From positions 896,260 through 960,259 of the forward strand of contig JBBCGK010000001.1 of the NCBI GenBank assembly GCA_037200965.1: a DNA stretch of 64,000 nt. Direction: 5' to 3'. This DNA is from a bacterium. Its GTDB lineage: Bacteria > Patescibacteriota > Minisyncoccia > Phycocordibacterales > Phycocordibacteraceae. The notes beneath the pieces were generated by a model. It was not told where the DNA came from and did not search any database. It saw nothing but the letters and a program-made list of their open reading frames with translations. Positions 18,580 through 26,515 of this stretch are shown here, piece after piece. Every line of letters begins with the position of its first letter. Within the stretch, counting starts at the first letter, position 1. The position numbers and the translations under genes are program-made.

Positions 18580-18867
18580 ATGGCAGGAACAGGCGTTTCT
18601 TCCGAGAATCCGGGATTTATCCCGGATCAGAACTACACATTCGAACCGCCGGTGAAGACGAGATGCATCTCGACCGCTGGCGGCAGCGGCTGGACCGAAA
18701 AGGTTTTCGCCGAAGGGTGGTGCCTGAAGTTCGATCCGAGCACGAAGATAGGCACCTTCCAGGGAATGCCTGTCGGAGAAGATGTCGAACACTTCTTCAC
18801 CATCGAATTCGGCCCTGGGAGCGTGGCGAAAGAAGTCTCGCCGCCCCATCTCACGGTCGTGAAATAG
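18580..18867 (+). CDS. Hypothetical small protein (95 aa)
   Basis: AAGGAGA RBS upstream of the ATG. No recognisable family. Confidence 0.45.
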   Translation: MAGTGVSSENPGFIPDQNYTFEPPVKTRCISTAGGSGWTEKVFAEGWCLKFDPSTKIGTFQGMPVGEDVEHFFTIEFGPGSVAKEVSPPHLTVVK

Positions 18868-18934
18868 GACGGGCTCCTGTATATCCGTCCTCACACAGCA
18901 CTCGCGCCATGCGCGGGTGCTGTATACTTTTTAT

Positions 18935-21900
18935 ATGCTCAAGCGGCTCGAAATCGCCGGGTTCAAATCGTTCGCACGGAAGACCGTGCTCGATTTCTCG
19001 TCCTCGGTGACGTCGATCGTGGGGCCGAATGGATCTGGGAAGTGCGTGACGGGCGATACGCTCCTTGCGCGCCGGACGGCTTCGGGGGAAGCGGAAGACG
19101 TCGCGATCAAAGACATCCGTCGCGGCGACGAGGTACTCGCGCTTGACGAGGCGACGGGCGCTTTCGTGAGCGCCCGCGTGAACGCGCTCCTCGATTCGGG
19201 CACCAAAGACGTGTGTGAGCTTGTCACGGAAAGCGGCAAGCGCATTCGTACGACCGCGGAGCACCCTTATCTCGCCGCTCCGGAGGCCCGGCCAGTTCCC
19301 GAGCGTCCGCGCATCGGCGTGTTTATTGATAACTCGAATCTCTATCATGGGGCGCGAAAGGCCGGGTGGCAGATCGATTTTGGCAAGCTCCGCGCGCTGC
19401 TTGAAGCAAGCGCCGACCTTCGCATCATGCGCTATCACGTCGCGGTTCCGGAAGCCGGGGATCCCGCGCATGAAGCCGCGCGCAAGCATCTGCGGGCGGT
19501 CGCCCCGTACGTGACGGTGCTCGAAAAGCCGCTCAAGTATATTGCCGGAAGCAACGGATCGGTCGTAAAGAAGGGAGATATCGACATCGACCTCGCCCTG
19601 GATGTCGTGCGGCATCTGCCGCTTCTCGACGTCGCGATAATCGTGAGCGGGGACAGCGACTATCTGGGGCTTGAGCAGTACGTGCAGCGGCAAGGGAAAG
19701 CGGCCCTATTCCTCTCATTCAAGCGGTCGATGGCGTGGGAGTTGCGCTTGAAGCCGCATATCTTTGCGGAGCGCATCCGCCCGTGGATCGAGCGCAGAGG
19801 AACGCAAAACCCCGAGCTTTCGCTCGGGGCAGTGTTGGTAGCGCCAATTATACAGGCATCGCTCAAGCGCGCAAGCCCCGGGCGCGAGACCCGTGTGGAT
19901 ACTATCGGTTCATGGACTCGCGTCATGCATCTTGCTATCGGTTCGCGCATCGCGACGCTCTCTGCCTCCGGAGCGCTCACGTTTGAAGCAGTTGCGTCGA
20001 TATCCGTTCTTCCCGCTGAACGGGTATATGACATTGAGGTGGAAGGAGTTCATAACTTCGTGGGAAACGGTATCGTCGCGCACAACAGCAACGTTGCCGA
20101 AGCTTTCCGCTTCGCGCTCGGGGAACAGTCGATGAAGTCGATGCGCGGGAAACGAAGCGAAGACCTCATCTTTTCGGGCTCGCACACCGCACAGCGCTCA
20201 AACCGTGCCGCGGTCGCGGTCGTTTTCGATAATTCCCGCAAGCAATTCAAGCTCGACTTTAACGAGGTGGTGATCGAGCGCGCGGTATTTCGCGACGGGA
20301 CGAGCGAATACTCGATCAACGGGTCGAAAGCGCGCCTTCGCGACATCCAGGAGCTTCTTGCAGGCGCCAATATCGGCGAGACCGGGCACCACATCATCTC
20401 CCAGGGCGAGGCCGATCGGATACTCGCGGCTTCAAGCGCCGACCGGCGCGAAATGCTTGAGGAAGCGCTCGGGCTCAAGATTTTCGAATTCAAGAAGCAG
20501 GAGAGCGAGAAGAAACTCCAGAAGACCGAGGAGAATATCGGACAGGTGGAGGCGCTCCGGAGGGAACTCGCGCCGCACTTGAAGTTCCTCGGGAAGCAGG
20601 TCGAGAAGCTCGAACGCGCGGAGGAAATGCGGCGCGAGCTCGGAGCCGCGGCGAGGACGTACCTCGCGATCGAGGATGCCTATCTTCGGGAAGAAAAGAA
20701 GCGTGCCGAAAGCGCGAAAGTCTCCGCGGCGGAGCGCCTTGCGAAAGCGTCCGCGGAACTTGCCGCGGTCACCGACCTCACGGCAAGCGACAGCGAAGCC
20801 CTGAAGCGCTTCGAAGCCGTACGGCAGTCGGAAGCTCTTGCCGAGCGGATTACCTCCTCGCGGGCCGAACTTGCGCGCGAGCTCGGGAAGACGGAAGGTG
20901 CGCTTGAGGGAGCAAAAAGGCGAAGCGCCGCAGTCGCCCGCGACCCGTACGCGAAGATACCGCGGGAAGACCTGACGGCTCTTCGGGACGAGGTTGAGCG
21001 GCAGGCCGAAGGCGCGGGAGAAGGTGTCGAGTCGCTGCGCGCCGCACTCGCCGCGATACGCTCGGCAACGCGCGCTTTCTTCGAGCGCTTCGCGGTTTCG
21101 GGTGCCGCGTACCTTGCGGAGGAGGAGCGCGAGACGTTCGCGCTTGAGGAAGAGCAGAAAAGGCTCGTCGCGAAAGACGCGGAGCTCGCTGCCGAGCTTG
21201 AAAAAGCGCGGGCGGCGCTTGCCCGAGCCCGCGAAGAAGCCCGCGCCCGCGAAGAGGCGGGGCGCGAAAGCCAGCACCGCACGCTGCAGGTCGCGGAGGC
21301 AAAGGCTTCCGCGGAGGCGGAGACGGAACGGTTCGGCGCGCGCCTTCGCGAGCTTGCCTTCCTTGCCGAAGAGCTCCAGAGGGACACGGCCGAAGTACTC
21401 GCGCTTGCGGGTGCCGAGGCCGTCTCGTACGCGCCCCTGTCGGAGCTTCCGCGGGAAGAGCGCCGGGCGCAGGAAGACCGCAAGCGCGCGCTTGAGCGCC
21501 TCAAGATACGGCTTGAGGAAGCGGGCGGCGGCGGGGAACAAATACGCAGCGAATACAAGGAGGTCTCGGAGCGAGAGAGTTTCCTTGCGCGGGAGCTTGA
21601 GGATCTTGCGAAGTCGGCCGCAGGGCTTCGGGAACTCATAACCGAGCTCGATACGGAACTCGGCAAGAGTTTCGCGGAGGGGCTTCAGAAGGTTAACGCG
21701 TCGTTCGGGGAATTCTTCGCGCTCATGTTCGGGGGCGGAAGCGCCCGGCTTGTGCTTGAAGAGCCCGAAGACGATGAAGAGGAAGACGAGGAACGCGAAA
21801 CAAGCACGCCACGCAGGGAAATGCGTCCGGGGATCGAGATATCGGTTGCCCTCCCGAAAAAGCGCGTGCAGTCGCTCATGCAGCTTTCAGGCGGCGAGCG

Positions 21901-22180
21901 GGCGCTCACGTCGATCGCGCTCATCTTTGCCATGAGCCAGGTGAATCCGCCGCCGTTTTTGATACTTGACGAGACGGACGCGGCCTTGGACGAGGCCAAC
22001 AGCCGCCGCTACGGCGACATGATCGAGAACCTCTCGAAGAAATCCCAGCTTATCGTCATCACGCATAACCGCGAGACCATGAGCAGGGCGGGCATCCTCT
22101 ACGGCGTGACAATGTCGGGCGACGGCGTCTCGAAGCTCCTTTCGGTCAAATTCGACGAGGCGGTTGCGGTGGCGAAGTAA
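18935..22180 (+). CDS. smc: SMC-family chromosome partition ATPase (hinge-less, about 740-aa extein) interrupted by an intein after Walker A
   Basis: N-terminus MLKRLEIAGFKSF...VGPNGSGK, then the intein, then SNVAEAFRFALGEQSMKSMRG...IFSGS. Long coiled-coil. C-terminal LSGGERALTSIALIFAM signature and LILDETDAALD D-loop. No hinge domain is discernible. A GTG at 18917 is an alternative start. Confidence 0.85.
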   Translation: MLKRLEIAGFKSFARKTVLDFSSSVTSIVGPNGSGKCVTGDTLLARRTASGEAEDVAIKDIRRGDEVLALDEATGAFVSARVNALLDSGTKDVCELVTESGKRIRTTAEHPYLAAPEARPVPERPRIGVFIDNSNLYHGARKAGWQIDFGKLRALLEASADLRIMRYHVAVPEAGDPAHEAARKHLRAVAPYVTVLEKPLKYIAGSNGSVVKKGDIDIDLALDVVRHLPLLDVAIIVSGDSDYLGLEQYVQRQGKAALFLSFKRSMAWELRLKPHIFAERIRPWIERRGTQNPELSLGAVLVAPIIQASLKRASPGRETRVDTIGSWTRVMHLAIGSRIATLSASGALTFEAVASISVLPAERVYDIEVEGVHNFVGNGIVAHNSNVAEAFRFALGEQSMKSMRGKRSEDLIFSGSHTAQRSNRAAVAVVFDNSRKQFKLDFNEVVIERAVFRDGTSEYSINGSKARLRDIQELLAGANIGETGHHIISQGEADRILAASSADRREMLEEALGLKIFEFKKQESEKKLQKTEENIGQVEALRRELAPHLKFLGKQVEKLERAEEMRRELGAAARTYLAIEDAYLREEKKRAESAKVSAAERLAKASAELAAVTDLTASDSEALKRFEAVRQSEALAERITSSRAELARELGKTEGALEGAKRRSAAVARDPYAKIPREDLTALRDEVERQAEGAGEGVESLRAALAAIRSATRAFFERFAVSGAAYLAEEERETFALEEEQKRLVAKDAELAAELEKARAALARAREEARAREEAGRESQHRTLQVAEAKASAEAETERFGARLRELAFLAEELQRDTAEVLALAGAEAVSYAPLSELPREERRAQEDRKRALERLKIRLEEAGGGGEQIRSEYKEVSERESFLARELEDLAKSAAGLRELITELDTELGKSFAEGLQKVNASFGEFFALMFGGGSARLVLEEPEDDEEEDEERETSTPRREMRPGIEISVALPKKRVQSLMQLSGGERALTSIALIFAMSQVNPPPFLILDETDAALDEANSRRYGDMIENLSKKSQLIVITHNRETMSRAGILYGVTMSGDGVSKLLSVKFDEAVAVAK
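19043..20086 (+). mobile_element. Intein (348 aa) in the SMC P-loop carrying a NYN/LabA-like PIN-fold nuclease domain instead of a canonical homing endonuclease
   Basis: Intein starts at Cys after GPNGSGK (block A CVTGDTLLA) and has block B TTAEHPY. Block F is VYDIEVEGVHNFVGNG and block G is IVAHN, followed by +1 Ser. Removing it reconstitutes GPNGSGKSNVAEAFRFALGEQS. The central about 150 aa hold NYN motifs GVFIDNSNLYH, DIDIDLALD and IVSGDSDY. Confidence 0.85.
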
Positions 22181-22185
22181 TCGTC

Positions 22186-23116
22186 TTCTAATCAACACCT
22201 TGGCACCACCTCCTTGAGTACTTGTGCCGGGGTCAGGAGATTCAGGCCGAAATGGTGCCGCTCCCGGTTGTACCAGGGGATGTATTTCTTCAGAGCCGCA
22301 TTGAACGCTTCCGGACTTCTGCGCGCATGGTCGAGGCACTCCTCCTGAAGCGTGCGGTTGAATCGCTCGATATGCGCATTGTCGTTGGGTTTCCCGATGC
22401 GGGAATACCGGTGCTTCCTCCGGATGCGCTCGACGAACCACGCCCCGAACTCGGGACCATGGTCGCTCTGGAGCATTTCGAAGCGGAAGGACGCTCTCCG
22501 CTGCGCCTCCTCGACGAAGCGCACGGCGGTCGCGGCATCCATGCGCGCATAGGTCTTCGCGTACGCGGTGCGGGAATGCACGTCGATGAGGGTGAAGGTA
22601 TACATCCGCTTCTTCAAATCGAGCATGGTGTGAATGGTGTCGATCTGGACGAGGGAACCGGGTTTCTCCGGCAGGGGGCGGTCGACCTGTGGGTGGTATC
22701 GCTTGTACGGGCTCCTCTTCTTGAGGAGGCCCATGCGGTCAAGCGTTCGCTTGATGGTGGAGAGTGAAATCACCACCCCTTCCTCCTCCAGTATGCGCTG
22801 AATGACTTCCGCGCTTCGCTTCGACTTGAGCCGGGTATGGAAGATCTTCCAGCGGAGTTCGTCTGAGAGCTGCCGGGGATGGCGCTTCGGACGCGACGAG
22901 CGCGTCGGTATCGGGTGGTATCCGATGCGTTCGGCCCTTCGCACCCATTTCATGACGGCGGTGTGATGGTACCCGAGATGCCGCCCGATCTTGCGCGCGC
23001 TCCAGCCTTGGCGGAAGAGATCCGCCGCTTCGCGGCGGATGCGGGGCATACGGGGGTTGGTGGTGTATGGCATGCGACTTGGCTTAGTGGTGCCAAGGTA
23101 TTGAACCATTACGAGT
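22186..23116 (-). mobile_element. IS481-family insertion sequence (about 0.93 kb) inserted at the smc stop codon
   Basis: Terminal imperfect inverted repeats: left ...TAATCAACACCTTGGCACCAC (22189-22209); right reverse-complement CTCGTAATGGTTCAATACCTTGGCACCAC (23087-23116). Single DDE transposase ORF. A possible 5-bp direct repeat GTAAT lies at 22177-22181 and 23115-23119. Exact ends uncertain by a few bp. Confidence 0.65.
22192..23109 (-). CDS. IS481-family DDE transposase (start 23109 or 23073)
   Basis: N-terminal HTH (RIRREAADLFRQGWSARKIGRHLGYHHTAVMKW). rve integrase core LVQIDTIH...DHGPEF...KPNDNAHIERFNRTLQEE with a D,D,E triad. Confidence 0.8.
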   Translation of the reverse strand: MVQYLGTTKPSRMPYTTNPRMPRIRREAADLFRQGWSARKIGRHLGYHHTAVMKWVRRAERIGYHPIPTRSSRPKRHPRQLSDELRWKIFHTRLKSKRSAEVIQRILEEEGVVISLSTIKRTLDRMGLLKKRSPYKRYHPQVDRPLPEKPGSLVQIDTIHTMLDLKKRMYTFTLIDVHSRTAYAKTYARMDAATAVRFVEEAQRRASFRFEMLQSDHGPEFGAWFVERIRRKHRYSRIGKPNDNAHIERFNRTLQEECLDHARRSPEAFNAALKKYIPWYNRERHHFGLNLLTPAQVLKEVVPRC

Positions 23117-23180
23117 AATTTGACACGTTTCCTCTTATAGAGTATTGTGCGCATAACGCATAGACGAAAAGGAGATTCGA

Positions 23181-23552
23181 ATGCGTAGCACATTCAAAGC
23201 GATAGTGGCAGCCGCGCTCATGCTTGCGCCTGTTGCTGCCGGGGCGGAGCCGGATTTCGCATATAACGAGAGAAGCCCGAGCGAGAAATGGCGAGACGAA
23301 CACATCACCTTCGCCTACTTCGGGCGGGAAATCAAAGGCACCGACTGGCTCGTCATCGGCCTCCATCCCGGAGACCGGAAGGTAACCGTCTCGCACCGGC
23401 ATAAGATCTATCGCGACTGGGGCTATGCGGAAGTGTTTTCGCTATCAGTAGGCGACTCAATCTTCCTCGAGCCGTCTACTGCATATCCATTTGGTCAAAA
23501 GGCGAAGCTCGTAGAGTTCGATGGCTACACCAGCATGTTCTGGATCCATTGA
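23181..23552 (+). CDS. Hypothetical secreted small protein (signal peptide)
   Basis: AAAAGGAGA RBS. N-terminal signal peptide MRSTFKAIVAAALMLAPVAAGA. No known family. Confidence 0.5.
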   Translation: MRSTFKAIVAAALMLAPVAAGAEPDFAYNERSPSEKWRDEHITFAYFGREIKGTDWLVIGLHPGDRKVTVSHRHKIYRDWGYAEVFSLSVGDSIFLEPSTAYPFGQKAKLVEFDGYTSMFWIH

Positions 23553-23600
23553 GTTTCACCCCGTGAAGGGAGGTGCCCGGCACAGAAGGCCGGGCACTTT

Positions 23601-23846
23601 TCATTTTGCGAGGCGGTCTCTTTCCTCGCGCTGCAGGCGGAAACGCTCCTTGCAGCTTTCGCAGCCTTCCGGTCCCTGCATCCCGAATATATGTCCGTAC
23701 GCTTCTTCGAGCGCTGTTTCAAGAATGTCGCGTGGAAACTCGTCGCAGCACATAACGGTAGCGATCAGTATGCCCATATCGGGCTTAAGTTCCGGATGGG
23801 ATTCGGCAAACGCTACGCGTCCAAGACGCCTGTCTTCCGGTGTCAT
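23601..23846 (-). CDS. Hypothetical small Cys-containing protein (81 aa)
   Basis: AAGGAGA RBS 7 nt upstream of the minus-strand ATG. Motifs CC...C..C. Confidence 0.45.
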   Translation of the reverse strand: MTPEDRRLGRVAFAESHPELKPDMGILIATVMCCDEFPRDILETALEEAYGHIFGMQGPEGCESCKERFRLQREERDRLAK

Positions 23847-23948
23847 ATTGTATTTCTCCTTCAGTTCCTTACTCTATAACGCCGACAAAGAGACCTAAGA
23901 TGTCATGTCGTTCATCGTTCCAACAGGAGCGCATGTTATACTTCCTCC

Positions 23949-24164
23949 ATGCTTACGGCCGTATACAAGAAAGTCAGGAGCGGATACGTTGCCTGGATCG
24001 AGGAGGTGCCTGGCGTGCTGACGCAGGGAAAGTCGCGCGTCGAGGCGCGCGCGAATCTTGCTGATGCGCTTCGTGAATTCATCGCGGCGCGGCGTGACGC
24101 TACACGACGAAGCTCCGTACGTGGAAGCGCTCCCCTCAAGCGCGAGCGCATGGCGCTCGCATAG
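23949..24164 (+). CDS. hicB: HicB-family antitoxin (UPF0150-like)
   Basis: VYKKVRSGYVAWIEEVPGVLTQGKSRVEARANLADALREFI matches the HicB N-domain pattern. Lies directly upstream of hicA. Confidence 0.7.
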   Translation: MLTAVYKKVRSGYVAWIEEVPGVLTQGKSRVEARANLADALREFIAARRDATRRSSVRGSAPLKRERMALA

Positions 24165-24173
24165 CTTTCCCCG

Positions 24174-24368
24174 ATGAAGCGCCGGGACCTGGAGCGGCAT
24201 CTTTATGCGCAAGGTTGCCGTCTTGTACGGGAGGGCGCGAAGCATTCCGTATTTGAGAATCCTCCGCTTGGCGCGATGGCGACGGTACCGCGGCACGCCG
24301 AAGTCGACCCGTATCTCGCGCGAAAAATCTGCAAGGAGCTCGGCATTAAGGCACCACAAGGGCGTTAA
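24174..24368 (+). CDS. hicA: HicA-family mRNA interferase toxin
   Basis: MKRRDLERHLYAQGCRLVREGAKHSVFENP...ATVPRHAEVDPYLARKICKELGI matches the HicA/YcfA pattern (KGSH..., VPxH...). Its stop is 1 nt from the convergent rnr stop. Confidence 0.75.
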   Translation: MKRRDLERHLYAQGCRLVREGAKHSVFENPPLGAMATVPRHAEVDPYLARKICKELGIKAPQGR

Positions 24369-24369
24369 T

Positions 24370-26343
24370 TTATTTCTTCTCCGAGAGCGTGAAATCGAGC
24401 TCGCGCTCCGGAATACGCGCGGCAAGGAGCTTCACGCGCACCGGGTCGCCGAGCGTATAGCTTTTCTTGAGCCGATTGCCGATAAGGCGGTAGCGGGCCT
24501 GGTCGAAGGTGTAATAGTCGTCGCCGATCGAGGAGAGTCGGATCATGCCTTCCGCGTGCGTTTCCGTAAGTTCGACGTACATCCCGCGCTCGGTGACGCC
24601 CGAGATGACGGCGTCGAATTCCTGTCCGATCTTGTCCGCCATGAACTCGACGAGCTTCATCTTGATCGAGTCGCGCTCGGCTTCCGTCGCCGATATTTCG
24701 CGCTCGTTGCAGTGGATCGCCATCTCCTCGAGATGATCCATATCCTCGCGGTCGAGCTCATCCCCGTTCTCATAGTGCTTGAGGATACGATGCGTGATCA
24801 GGTCGGGATAACGGCGGATGGGGGAGGTGAAATGGGTATAGGAATCGAACGCGAGCCCGAAGTGTCCGATGTTTTTGGTCGCGTACGCGGCCCTCGCCAT
24901 GGAGCGCAAGCTCGCGGTCTTTATGAGGTATTCCTCCGGCGTTCCCGTGACCTGCGAGAGAAGCGCGTTGATATCGGTTCCTTTGACTTTCCCCGCCTGG
25001 TTCTTGAGCTCGTACCCGAGCGCATGGAGGAACTGCGCGAGATTCTCGATGCGGTCCATATCCGGCGCGTCGTGCACGCGATATATCTGCGAGAGCCTGT
25101 CGCCCTTTTTCTTCGATGTCTCGGCAAGATGCTCGGCCACGGCCACGTTCGCAAGGAGCATGAAGTCCTCGATGAGCATGTTGGTATCGCGCCGCTCTTT
25201 GAGATGCACGGCGACCGGCTTCCCGCTCCCGTCGAGCTCGATCTTCACTTCCGCGGTATCGAAGGCGATGGCGCCGTTGTCGGTCCGGCGCTTCCTGAGC
25301 TTGTCGGCAAGGCGCTTTAGGGTATTGAGTTCCGCAAGCATGGGACCGTTCTGGGTATCAAGCACCTCCTGGGCGCCTTCGTAGGCGAAGCGCTTGTCGG
25401 AGTGGATGACGGTTTCGCCGAACCATCGTTCAAGGACGTTCGCGTCGCTGTCGAGCACGAAGACCGCGGAAACGGCGAGGCGGTCTATGTGTTCATTCAG
25501 GGAGCACAGGTTGTTTGAAAGCACGTGCGGAAGCATAGGAATAGTGCGGTCAACAAGATAGACCGAAGTCGCGCGGTGCCTTGCCTCGCGGTCGAAGTCG
25601 GTGCCTGGCCGTACGAAATACGAAACGTCGGCGATATGAATGCCGACCTCGGTCTTTCCGTCCCCGAGGTCCCTGACCGAAAGCGCGTCGTCGAAGTCCT
25701 TGGCGTCCGCGGGGTCTATGGTAAAAGTCGGGGTGCCGCGGAAGTCCCGGCGCTTGGTTTCTCCCCGTGCGGCCTTTGCCGCTTCTTCGTCGATCATCGC
25801 CTGTCCGGTCGCCTCGAGCTTCTCCGCTTCTTTGATCACCCCCGGAGGGAATTCGCTGTGGAAGCCCTGGGAGAGCGCCAAGGCGCGCATCTCGGTCTCG
25901 TGGACGCCTGCGGGCCCGATGATCTCCTCAAGGCGGGCGGAAGGGAACTGCTGGCCCTTGTCCCAGCCCGTGAGGCGGACGAGCACTTTGTTTCCGAGCG
26001 GAAGATTGTCGCCCGTGACGATAAAGGGCGTGTACATGCGCTTCCAGTCGGGCGCAAGGAGCGTCTCCCCGCGCTCGCCTTTGATGAGCGTCCCGACGAA
26101 ATGCTCCCGGTTTCGCTTCACTATCTCAAGTACCTTTGCGGCTTTCCGGTTATCGACGATGCCCGCGGGCGCGATCTTGACCGTATCGCCGTGGAAAGCG
26201 CCCATGATCCACTCGCGGGGAATCATGAGATCCTCCTGTTTATCTTTCGAACTTTTAGAGACGCCTGGGTCCAGGCTGAAGAAACCGATTCCCCTGCCGG
26301 TGACGGAAATGATTCCCTCGTATGATTTTTCCTCGGGCTTCAA
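24370..26343 (-). CDS. rnr: Ribonuclease R (RNB-family 3'-5' exoribonuclease)
   Basis: 657 aa with N-terminal OB/cold-shock domain, RNB catalytic domain (DPADAKDFDDALSV..., HFGLAFDSYTHFTSPIRRYPD) and a C-terminal S1 domain. Confidence 0.9.
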   Translation of the reverse strand: MKPEEKSYEGIISVTGRGIGFFSLDPGVSKSSKDKQEDLMIPREWIMGAFHGDTVKIAPAGIVDNRKAAKVLEIVKRNREHFVGTLIKGERGETLLAPDWKRMYTPFIVTGDNLPLGNKVLVRLTGWDKGQQFPSARLEEIIGPAGVHETEMRALALSQGFHSEFPPGVIKEAEKLEATGQAMIDEEAAKAARGETKRRDFRGTPTFTIDPADAKDFDDALSVRDLGDGKTEVGIHIADVSYFVRPGTDFDREARHRATSVYLVDRTIPMLPHVLSNNLCSLNEHIDRLAVSAVFVLDSDANVLERWFGETVIHSDKRFAYEGAQEVLDTQNGPMLAELNTLKRLADKLRKRRTDNGAIAFDTAEVKIELDGSGKPVAVHLKERRDTNMLIEDFMLLANVAVAEHLAETSKKKGDRLSQIYRVHDAPDMDRIENLAQFLHALGYELKNQAGKVKGTDINALLSQVTGTPEEYLIKTASLRSMARAAYATKNIGHFGLAFDSYTHFTSPIRRYPDLITHRILKHYENGDELDREDMDHLEEMAIHCNEREISATEAERDSIKMKLVEFMADKIGQEFDAVISGVTERGMYVELTETHAEGMIRLSSIGDDYYTFDQARYRLIGNRLKKSYTLGDPVRVKLLAARIPERELDFTLSEKK

Positions 26344-26454
26344 GTTATAAACACTGTATCAATACAGGGCGATTTATGCTATTGTCTGAACACACGGCAT
26401 GCGTCCTTCAGGAGCATCGCGGTGGCCCTTCCCGGGCGTTTCCTCCCTGAACTT

Positions 26455-26481
26455 GCGGCACCCCTGGTGCCGCCCTTTTTT
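26455..26481 (+). terminator. Orphan plus-strand intrinsic terminator between divergent rnr and rpsP
   Basis: 8-bp stem gcggcacc/ggtgccgc, loop cct, then cc+TTTTTT. No plus-strand CDS lies upstream. Could terminate a roughly 100-nt small RNA. Confidence 0.55.
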
Positions 26482-26486
26482 GCAAA

Positions 26487-26515
26487 TTGACTCGCAAGCC
26501 TTCTTTTGGTACCCT
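26487..26515 (+). promoter_or_regulatory. Candidate rpsP promoter placing the TSS 2-3 nt before the ATG (leaderless)
   Basis: TTGACT (26487-26492), 17-nt spacer, TACCCT (26510-26515). ATG at 26525 with no SD. Confidence 0.35.

Follow-up and report, generated by a model that had tools for sequence, protein, structure and literature searches.

The window, as the whole 64,000-nucleotide stretch of DNA analyzed in this study is called, carries the SMC gene of a Paceibacterota/Kaiserbacteria-like bacterium of the candidate phyla radiation (Patescibacteria), and this gene holds an insert in its ATP-binding loop (Table 1). The SMC open reading frame (18917..22180, + strand) encodes 1087 amino acids from a GTG start at 18917. 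Translation probably begins at the ATG at 18935 instead, because the orthologues open with MLKRLEIAGF. The insert consists of 348 codons (nt 19043-20086) and interrupts the Walker A motif GPNGSGK^S in frame, after its Lys and before its Ser, where ^ marks an insertion point here and below. No match to SMC_hinge was found at E<=1 in the SMC, which has a mature length of 733 amino acids; over 100 Patescibacteria orthologues share this short form. An exact-protein look-up returned no identical protein for the window SMC, and a search of the 410-nt spacer that precedes smc and is specific to the window found no repeats.

Table 1. Positions of the SMC gene, its intein and the parts of the intein within the window.
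Feature	Position (nt)	Strand	Basis or remark
SMC gene (precursor with intein; probable start)	18935..22180	+	SMC_N 2.8e-64; TIGR02168 513 bits (under its cut-off of 567); orthologue starts
N-extein, ending ...IVGPNGSGK (Walker A through Lys)	18935..19042	+	Protein 100% identical to intein-less orthologue P0026
Intein, 348 aa (Cys1 ... His347-Asn348)	19043..20086	+	HMM matches; gap in L003
Splicing block A, CVTGDTLL (Cys1 nucleophile)	19043..19066	+	C1 in 75/75 NYN-inteins
Splicing block B, IRTTAEHPYLA (Thr71, His74)	19244..19276	+	H74 in 75/75, T71 in 74/75
NYN/LabA PIN-like nuclease domain, aa 88-250	19304..19792	+	NYN PF01936 match
NYN residue D96	19328-19330	+	Invariant
NYN residue N99	19337-19339	+	Invariant
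NYN residue K177	19571-19573	+	Invariant
NYN residue D181	19583-19585	+	Invariant
NYN residue D204	19652-19654	+	Invariant
NYN residue D206	19658-19660	+	Invariant
C-terminal extension of nuclease module, aa 251-283 (...WIERRGTQNPELSLGAVLV...), lower-confidence helix	19793..19891	+	Common to free-standing NYN homologues
Hint beta-hairpin RVDTIGSWTRVMHLAIGSRIATL, after the nuclease here	19892..19960	+	
Splicing blocks F and G, ERVYDIEVEGVHNFVGNGIVAHN (D330, H347, N348)	20018..20086	+	
C-extein, Ser+1 (20087-20089) to stop codon; completes Walker A as GPNGSGK-S	20087..22180	+	

The boundaries of the insert were defined by comparison with orthologues. Among the 120 best orthologues, 119 (729-775 amino acids, 67-84% identity) are collinear from end to end with the spliced SMC of 733 amino acids, and the insert is absent from all 119. 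The single longer match among the 120, the 942-amino acid SMC P0029, was rejected as an SMC intein because its extra length consists of internal duplications, probably an assembly artefact. In addition, alignment with a syntenic relative, L003 (84% SMC identity), shows an exact gap of 1044 nt between the K and S codons of GPNGSGK^S; by blastn, window 18915-19045 corresponds to L003 5980-6111 and window 20084-22180 to L003 6106-8199. The joined, insert-free SMC site in L003 reads ...GGGCCAAATGGCTCGGGTAAG^AGCAACGTAGCTGAGGCA.... An earlier note on this DNA had stated that deletion of residues 43-390, which are nt 19043-20086, restores the SMC head, and both comparisons bear this out. Homologous non-intein sequence at the insert position, which that note named as evidence to the contrary, was found in none of these 119 orthologues.

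The 348-amino acid segment was matched in two stretches by the Pfam model Intein_splicing (E 1.2e-16, 61.3 bits against a cut-off of 35.8) and by the NCBIfam model intein_Cterm (TIGR01443; 3.1e-9), and the match to intein_Nterm was marginally under the cut-off (5.1e-5, 24.2 bits against 24.5). The Hint fold is built from two segments which flank the nuclease. The class-1 splicing set is complete (C1, T71, H74, D330, H347, N348 and Ser+1), and the motifs CVTGDT, TTAEHP, GVFIDNSN, DIDIDLALD, SGDSDY, VYDIEVEGVHNF and VAHN^S are all present in columns that are invariant, or nearly so, in the family of NYN-inteins. This family numbers at least 75 distinct members assembled from public Patescibacteria data, and it is defined by HMM, so badly decayed copies would be missed. 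The terminal His-Asn and a Ser or Thr at +1 are invariant across these 75. Splicing blocks A, B, F and G and the Ser+1, as proposed in the earlier note, were recovered by both the model searches and the family alignment. Judged from its sequence, 19043-20086 is confirmed as a canonical class-1 intein which splits the SMC Walker A motif. The precursor would splice and religate GPNGSGK-S, because the open reading frame is intact and an SMC with a split P-loop cannot bind ATP. The GC3 of the intein is 0.70 and that of its C-terminal Hint part is 0.54, against 0.74-0.83 in neighbouring genes, which is consistent with a foreign origin.

The nuclease nested in the intein was matched by the NYN model PF01936 over aa 90-235 (E 2.9e-16, 60.7 bits against a cut-off of 24.2) and weakly by TIGR00288. 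In the predicted structure it adopts a PIN-like alpha/beta fold like those of solved NYN structures, with high confidence for the NYN domain and low confidence for aa 278-285 after the domain, and the NYN domain of MARF1 is its second structural neighbour. Residues D96, N99, K177, D181, G203, D204 and D206 are invariant in 75/75 NYN-inteins, which are only about 29-55% identical overall, and the splicing residues are kept to the same degree (75/75; 74/75 for T71). At other acidic positions, residue 183 is D or E in 60/75 and D187 is D or E in 73/75. From this conservation, the nested NYN/LabA nuclease is predicted to be a catalytically intact, metal-dependent enzyme. The module ends in a C-terminal extension of roughly 30-50 amino acids.

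NYN is the sole nuclease domain in the intein. The recognised homing-endonuclease families (LAGLIDADG, HNH, GIY-YIG, His-Cys box, PD-(D/E)XK and EDxHD/Vsr-like) gave no Pfam or NCBIfam match in any frame. An endonuclease hidden in another frame or antisense, as in actinophage inteins, was considered and rejected, since the overlapping ORFs 18854-19693(-), 19663-20034(-) and 19215-19511(+) had no Pfam match. PADLOC returned a generic NYN model (7.6e-8), which is not informative about membership in a defence system. The earlier note had identified the central domain as NYN/LabA and PIN-like, and not LAGLIDADG, HNH or GIY-YIG. Both parts of this claim stand, the first by model score, fold and conserved residues, including D96, D181, D204 and D206 in 75/75, and the second by the Pfam searches of all frames and the antisense strand. 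A lack of any NYN/PIN match or fold, or of the acidic residues, would have spoken against the claim, and neither was observed.

Most of the 75 NYN-inteins reside in giant tail-fibre-like surface proteins, and four reside at this SMC site. In public automatic annotation they appear as 'NYN domain-containing protein'. The other occupants of the SMC site are in L006 (Kaiserbacteria, exteins 47% identical), P0243 and P0285, and the nearest relatives of each SMC intein are inteins in surface-protein repeats. The target in the surface proteins is a repeated motif, ..LHVxGQ^TYIxGNVGIGTT.., for which the joined DNA reads ...CATGTNGTNGGNCAG^ACNTAYATH.... Several divergent inteins can occupy repeats of one gene. 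Inteins within one protein are just 31-54% identical, so recent intragenic homing is unsupported. A DNA target shared by the SMC site (..GGGAAG^AGC..) and the repeat (..GGNCAR^ACN..) was also considered, and the weak resemblance, GG(G/N)(A/C)A(G/R)^A, is too little to claim one. The NYN module is inserted in frame at either of two adjacent points in the Hint fold, one used in 27 and the other in 12 of 39 relatives; the Hint beta-hairpin precedes the nuclease in the 12 and follows it in the window intein. At the SMC site, three different NYN subtypes and both Hint topologies are found. In sister inteins the place of NYN is taken by an RNase H-like nuclease, as at aa 240-417 of P0018; this RNase HII-like module is the second common one of the lineage.

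The NYN module also occurs free-standing. In three independent loci (L029, L032 and L096), a free-standing NYN ORF lies between the halves of a split intein, with all parts on one strand in the order N-extein and IntN, NYN ORF, IntC and C-extein. The split loci also hold PemK-like, PD-(D/E)XK-like and 160-amino acid genes; the PD-(D/E)XK-like assignment rests on a match (E 4.3e-4) under the Pfam cut-off. Free-standing NYN copies adjoin a PemK/MazF toxin gene, and stand-alone related NYN genes adjoin a Y1 transposase gene of the IS200 type or a gene fragment that matches N-terminal SAM-like domains of phage integrases. A phage origin was not indicated: tblastn gave no match in 50,697 GenBank phage records, the few related inteins in IMG/VR were all without NYN, and the intein had no match in PHROGs. 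The occupied-site and empty-site 32-mers of this strain were both without matches in JGI metagenomes.

The explanation we favor is that of a class-1 SMC intein whose NYN nuclease is the mobility enzyme of the element, and we put the probability of this explanation as a whole at roughly 0.55. A homing role is the most likely one for the NYN module because intein occupancy is sporadic and site-specific among SMC orthologues, because the surroundings of the module are those usual for homing-endonuclease genes, and because NYN is the only nuclease that the element encodes. Like a homing endonuclease, it is encoded within or beside a self-splicing element that occupies one site sporadically among orthologues; it does not belong to a recognised homing-endonuclease family. 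Once excised, the intein would nick or cleave target DNA that lacks an intein, at the insertion site or close to it, and recombinational repair templated by an intein-bearing copy would then install the element there. The large intein lineage in Patescibacteria mainly colonises the surface-protein repeat, and the SMC P-loop site has been reached at least a few times. A wider proposal is that the NYN nuclease and its RNase H-like sister are new homing endonucleases which drive the large intein radiation in Patescibacteria, that these inteins home into the surface-protein repeat and now and then move into essential genes, as at the SMC Walker A loop, and that the free-standing module divides inteins into halves which splice in trans. 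This proposal is tentative, with chances somewhat short of even.

Several observations speak against a mobility role. We know of no NYN (PF01936) protein that is a site-specific DNA endonuclease, and no separate DNA-recognition domain was seen in the intein. Three NYN subtypes and both topologies at one SMC site would be odd if NYN alone sets target specificity, and the SMC and repeat targets are only weakly alike at the DNA level. The classical homing cycle predicts frequent nuclease decay, and no decayed NYN copy is found among the 75, a set whose HMM definition leaves out badly decayed ones. The identities of 31-54% within one protein give no sign of very recent homing. In addition, the PD-(D/E)XK-like protein could be the DNA endonuclease of the split loci, and the JGI metagenome scan yielded no empty-site allele of this strain. 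An alternative which we regard as unlikely, though to be reckoned with, is that the intein splices but NYN is an RNase with a non-homing role. It could act as a toxin or addiction module that penalises loss, it could process or regulate RNA to the advantage of the host, or it could serve in defence. The element would then spread or persist through ordinary recombination following DNA uptake, or be inherited vertically. PF01936 and its relatives, including the structural neighbour MARF1, are RNA-directed wherever studied, and 75/75 intact centres fit constant selection better than a homing cycle. The NYN model in PADLOC comes from candidate defence systems, a PemK/MazF toxin gene lies beside free-standing NYN copies, and the fold of the second module, RNase HII-like, is best known from RNA-containing substrates. 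However, an RNase without a homing role leaves unexplained why the same codon boundary is occupied in SMCs that are 47% identical and empty in 119 closer orthologues, and it does not account for the homing-endonuclease-type contexts of the module. Moreover, the PIN-like and RNase H-like folds include DNA nucleases (FEN/T5 exonuclease, RuvC, integrases and Endo V).

The remaining alternatives question the nuclease, the splicing or the assembly. That NYN is an inactive, decaying passenger, a former nuclease which is now just a linker in what would function as a mini-intein, is very improbable: many intein endonuclease domains are degenerate, and a low-confidence stretch (aa 278-285) follows the domain, but the NYN domain itself is modelled with high confidence and has an HMM score of 60.7 bits, far over its cut-off, and its D96, N99, K177, D181, G203, D204 and D206 are all retained at 29-55% overall identity. 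Scarcely plausible is an autoproteolytic module of the HINT/BIL type that releases a nuclease toxin, a possibility which mainly concerns the surface-protein copies. Most family members do lie in giant secreted tail-fibre-like proteins, the host type of PT-HINT domains (PMC3482391), and PT-HINT (PF07591) gave a sub-threshold match (18.2 bits against a cut-off of 27.7). Yet the Hint fold encloses the nuclease, which is not C-terminal to it, the His-Asn and the +1 Ser or Thr do not vary, and the host sequence, be it the repeat or Walker A, picks up again precisely where the insert ends. Cleavage alone would also destroy an SMC ATPase of an essential type, and splicing would restore GPNGSGKS. An assembly chimera that placed a foreign intein in the SMC gene deserves almost no credence; the assembly is of metagenome type and such genomes carry multiple copies of the intein lineage, but the insert falls precisely on a codon boundary and keeps the reading frame, its deletion restores Walker A, and three independent assemblies carry a NYN-intein at the same site.

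The window intein is one member of a sizeable NYN-intein family for which no description was found in the literature. The searches found no paper linking inteins and NYN domains, nothing relevant linking homing endonucleases and the PIN domain, nothing informative on NYN-domain DNases, and no report that places a NYN/LabA member within an intein or ascribes a homing function to one. The earlier note had called such an intein new, which agrees with the literature but not with the databases, as at least 75 are present in public data. To our knowledge, very few nuclease folds serve as homing endonucleases, and those encoded in frame in inteins are essentially LAGLIDADG and HNH. If the mobility explanation is true, a PIN-like/NYN homing nuclease would be a new homing-endonuclease fold and could give a new compact scaffold for site-specific nucleases, and the functionally obscure bacterial LabA/NYN family (PF01936) would gain its first concrete testable activity. 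If NYN is instead an RNase with another role, the family would be a clear case of intein cargo unrelated to homing. The lineage offers dozens of mutually divergent and presumably orthogonal inteins, natural split ones included. It also indicates that inteins thrive in repeat-rich surface proteins, beyond replication enzymes alone, which bears on the debate over parasitism versus function in intein distribution.

Compared with bifunctional inteins such as PI-SceI, PI-PfuI and full-length DnaB, the window intein has a nested domain that is NYN/PIN-like and not LAGLIDADG or HNH. The conserved endonuclease site in DnaB mini-inteins is the point after this Hint beta-hairpin. In the window intein, NYN sits one beta-hairpin earlier than in 12/39 relatives. 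A single, highly conserved site for HEN domains in inteins is reported (PMC6801210). A 2025 survey recorded LAGLIDADG, HNH, Vsr-like and Endo VII-like as the nested endonuclease types of inteins, and the NYN/PIN-like fold is absent from these types (bioRxiv 10.1101/2025.01.02.630785). The domain resembles NYN/LabA proteins (PF01936/COG1432; structure 2qip, VPA0982; MARF1) in HMM match, fold, Asp set and SGDxD motif. However, known NYN/LabA proteins stand alone or are joined to RNA-binding modules, and they are RNA-linked, and this one lies inside an intein and belongs to a subfamily with its own C-terminal extension (NMAWELR...TxNPxLxxG). The NYN family is predicted to act on RNA, as shown in MARF1. 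In the 2017 classification of the PIN superfamily, PF01936 counts as functionally unstudied, with no mention of Hint or homing (PMC5499597).

The split loci recall the 'fractured genes' of Dassa et al. (2009), in which a free-standing Vsr-like (EDxHD) homing endonuclease gene lies between the halves of a split intein (PMC2677866); L029, L032 and L096 have a NYN ORF in that place. Unlike fractured genes, the window intein is itself contiguous, the related loci have NYN as the intervening gene together with PemK-like, PD-(D/E)XK-like and 160-amino acid genes, and the hosts are Patescibacteria surface proteins, not phage DNA-metabolism enzymes. PT-HINT and bacterial intein-like (BIL) domains belong to polymorphic toxins and variable surface proteins, with the Hint domain ahead of a C-terminal effector and usually no canonical splice junction. 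They share with this lineage the Hint fold, and most relatives of the window intein lie in giant repeat-rich surface proteins, but the lineage differs from them in its canonical His-Asn and +1 nucleophile, its nested effector, the exact restoration of the host motif and the sub-cut-off PF07591 match. Lastly, the Walker A motif of DNA-associated P-loop/ABC-type ATPases is a known hot spot for inteins (PMC4760082), and the window intein lies inside Walker A as do those at DnaB site b, MCM site a and RFC (Novikova et al. 2016, PMC4760082). It differs from them in having SMC as its host, a protein not named among intein hosts in that survey's main text, and its insertion point separates the Lys of GxxGxGK^S from the Ser.

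An intein splits the Walker A loop of an SMC protein in the window, as the earlier note had proposed. The product of the smc ORF matches SMC_N (2.8e-64) and TIGR02168 (513 bits), and the Pfam and NCBIfam matches inside the ORF include Intein_splicing in two stretches with NYN (PF01936) within. Removing the intein, encoded by nt 19043-20086, in silico joins ...IVGPNGSGK to SNVAEAFRF... in a protein of 733 aa. With this spliced protein as the query, 120 orthologues from Patescibacteria (Paceibacterota, Kaiserbacteria, Parcubacteria) were listed. Of these, 119 are without the insert, are 714-775 aa long, and are collinear with the query over ~100% of its length at 67-84% identity; none has homologous sequence at the insertion point. 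The sole longer SMC among those listed, P0029 (942 aa), was rejected as an intein carrier and has internal duplications instead. The closest listed orthologue, P0026 (84% identity), is encoded on contig L003, which shares with the window the gene order DnaE, RNase HII, NusB-NUDIX, RNase III, SMC, RNase R, S16, KH, TrmD, RpoB. By the two blastn blocks, the window contains exactly 1044 additional bases, located between AAG (Lys) and AGC (Ser) of Walker A. This exact codon-boundary insertion excludes chance or misassembly, and an intein occurs at the same SMC boundary in three independent assemblies as well.

Features of the window, the intein and related loci
Feature	Location	Strand	Details
smc ORF	18917-22180	+	1087 aa; true start probably ATG 18935, since orthologues begin MLKRLEIAGF
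Nuclease module and hairpin in Hint fold	19277-19960		position compared with related proteins P0003, P0243 and others
Splicing block A	intein		CVTGDTLL, Cys1
Splicing block B	intein		TTAEHP (T71, H74)
Splicing block F	intein		VYDIEVEGVHNF (D330)
C-terminal splice junction	intein		His347-Asn348, then Ser+1
Pfam Intein_splicing	348-aa segment		E 1.2e-16; 61.3 bits, cut-off 35.8
Pfam NYN (PF01936)	intein aa 90-235		E 2.9e-16; 60.7 bits, cut-off 24.2
NCBIfam intein_Cterm	348-aa segment		E 3.1e-9
NCBIfam intein_Nterm	348-aa segment		E 5.1e-5; 24.2 bits, just under cut-off 24.5
blastn block	18915-19045		L003 5980-6111
blastn block	20084-22180		L003 6106-8199
SMC-site intein, window			348 aa
SMC-site intein, L006	Kaiserbacteria MAG JAHFMV010000016		380 aa; 45% identical; exteins only 47% identical
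SMC-site intein, P0243			341 aa; 32% identical (phmmer scan); 29%, lowest of 39 aligned
SMC-site intein, P0285			fragment; yet another NYN subtype
"Fractured gene" loci, three independent	L032:43-4973; L029:266-4680; L096:1-7298
Stand-alone NYN genes of subfamily	L097:5079-7233; L099:2233-4387; L001:6001-9528
Stretch missing from L003	18504-18914		~410 nt, between rnc and smc; 95-aa ORF without Pfam match; no repeats found
Window-specific insertion	22181-24390		~2.2 kb, between smc and RNase R gene; ~44 nt in L003; small ORFs without Pfam match
IS481-like DDE transposase ORF	22192-23193	-	in the ~2.2-kb insertion; rve_3 5.5e-15, rve 7.5e-11
suhB/mmgR (RF00519)	26418-26488	+	51.2 bits, gathering score 41
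Stretch missing from L003	27948-29223		~1.3 kb, before rpoB

Two side observations concern the neighbourhood. The mature SMC (exteins of 18935-22180), at only 733 aa, lacks an SMC_hinge Pfam match and scores below the TIGR02168 cut-off. The short form is kept in more than 100 Patescibacteria orthologues (729-775 aa), which may represent a hinge-less or minimal-hinge SMC family. The suhB/mmgR match, which lies at the start of the rpsP region or immediately before it, is unexpected because this family is known from alphaproteobacterial sRNAs; it could be spurious or could mark a leader element.

Judged from its sequence, the element belongs to the intein family, with all the defining sequence and fold features, and it has the full class-1 residue set. 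The 348-aa segment matched the splicing and NYN models, with intein_Nterm marginally under its cut-off, and the central domain falls within PF01936. The ORFs tested in another forward frame and antisense to the intein had no Pfam match; thus, no nuclease other than NYN is identifiable in the element. Conservation was assessed in two sets: 39 complete NYN-inteins, retrieved by running HMMER over all 1.84 billion representative proteins, and 75 distinct NYN-inteins, the number reached once GTDB genome loci were included. Members of the 39-sequence alignment share only 29-46% overall identity with the window's intein. The splicing residues C1, H74, D330, H337, H347 and N348 are present in all 75 sequences, as are NYN residues D96, N99, K177, D181, G203, D204 and D206, so the acidic catalytic set (D96, D181, D204, D206) is intact. 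Position 183 is Asp/Glu in 60/75 and position 187 in 73/75. This pattern indicates that the NYN nuclease centre is under selection and rules out a decayed linker. Both the observation and the interpretation in the earlier note hold as a whole.

Among the 1.84 billion representatives, 2997 hits passed E<=1e-3, and 63 passed E<=1e-30. When one genome per GTDB species was scanned by pattern, 331 stretches coding for relatives emerged, in Kaiserbacteria, Sungii-, Taylor-, Giovannoni-, Nealson-, Kerfeld-, Zambryski- and Daviesbacteria, WWE3 and others. With few exceptions the host proteins are very large (600 to >6000 aa), and in them the intein splits the repeated motif ...(T)SPxxxLHVxGQ/TYIxGNVGIGTT... 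(slash, insertion point). Their C-exteins, where scannable, carry Peptidase_S74 and Bact_surface_Ig-like domains, which marks these hosts as tail-fibre-like surface proteins. A single protein contains up to five inteins of the lineage (P0148, 5631 aa). Multi-intein giant surface proteins of Patescibacteria with GNVGIGTTSP..LHVxGQ/TYI repeats include P0148, P0146, P0147 and the loci L007, L013, L035 and L072, among others; canonical inteins are not usually hosted by proteins of this class. Four NYN-inteins (window, L006, P0243 and P0285) occupy the SMC Walker A site, each with its nearest relatives among the inteins of surface-protein repeats.

The NYN module occurs in several contexts. We take the canonical HEN site, from DnaB mini-intein sequences, to follow the hairpin GxW..V..L..G..IA. 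Where it is in frame, the module sits in one of two neighbouring loops of the Hint fold. It directly follows block B and precedes this hairpin in 27 of the 39 inteins, the window's among them, which makes the window's order the unusual one; the hairpin comes first in the other 12. P0243 has this other topology and a NYN subtype different from the window's. A single, highly conserved site is reported for HEN domains (PMC6801210). At L029, L032 and L096, a tail-fibre-like surface protein gene is interrupted by a split intein that belongs to this lineage, and between the halves NYN is a free-standing ORF that starts and stops independently. The order is N-extein plus IntN, NYN, a PemK/MazF-like toxin gene (4.7e-13), a gene of ~420-470 aa that combines a zinc ribbon with a PD-(D/E)XK-like region (4.3e-4, below cut-off), a ~160-aa gene, and IntC plus C-extein. 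This is the same layout as the "fractured genes" previously described for free-standing homing endonucleases (PMC2677866). Stand-alone NYN genes (L097, L099, L001) adjoin a 23S_rRNA_IVP-family gene (four-helix, bAvd-like). In two of these loci an IS200-type Y1 transposase gene is a further neighbour, and there the NYN ORF has a weak HintN remnant at its N-terminus. The stand-alone form is also found beside a gene fragment with matches to phage-integrase N-terminal SAM-like domains.

The distribution of the intein among SMC orthologues is sporadic and site-specific. We consider it slightly better than even (probability about 0.5-0.55) that the NYN domain is the mobility nuclease of the element. 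Splicing of the precursor would yield active SMC and release the 348-aa intein, empty target sites would be cut or nicked by the NYN domain, and recombinational repair would copy the intein in. This is suggested by the position of NYN inside an intein that has no other nuclease and by its three contexts (in-frame, free-standing in a split intein, stand-alone), which are typical of homing-endonuclease genes. In addition, a second, RNase H-like fold fills the same slot in sister inteins, and identical insertion points in SMCs only 47% identical need some site-specific mechanism. However, the little that is known of PF01936 proteins links them to RNA, and they are otherwise unstudied (PMC5499597), which leaves room for an RNase with another role, in addiction, regulation or defence; we regard this as a doubtful but serious alternative. 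Also against homing, a DNA-recognition domain is not obvious in the intein, one SMC target site is used by three NYN subtypes, no decayed NYN copies were seen, and the split loci hold another candidate DNA nuclease. All remaining readings together are improbable.

Two further observations count against homing. Inteins sharing one protein are 31-54% identical to each other, giving no sign of very recent homing. Neither an empty-site allele in the same population nor matches to occupied-site 32-mers were found in JGI metagenomes. The GC3 of the intein is 0.70 (0.74-0.75 in its N-terminal and NYN parts), compared with 0.74-0.83 in neighbouring genes, which is consistent with horizontal arrival. 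The value of 0.54 in the C-terminal Hint part (19898-20086) is a compositional mark left either by foreign origin or by constraint on conserved block F/G codons.

The suggestion that a NYN-intein would be something new stands in part. Full-text searches found no literature on inteins with a NYN domain, nothing relevant on homing endonucleases with a PIN domain, and, for inteins together with CPR bacteria, only a single paper's passing mention; a classification of the PIN superfamily (PMC5499597) mentions neither Hint nor homing. Yet with 75 distinct copies the intein is no singleton, and public databases already hold many such proteins under automatic names, for example "NYN domain-containing protein." The finding thus widens from one odd intein to a lineage for which no description was found, whose nested nucleases are non-canonical, whose members include natural split forms, and whose host range is unusual. 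P-loop insertion is a known intein habit that the window's intein shares, although SMC is not among the hosts named in the main text of that source (PMC4760082). Intein-associated endonucleases in a 2025 survey (bioRxiv 10.1101/2025.01.02.630785) are LAGLIDADG, HNH, Vsr-like (in split inteins) and Endo VII-like (out of frame). The nested nuclease of the window's intein is none of these; its NYN domain lies outside every recognised homing-endonuclease family.
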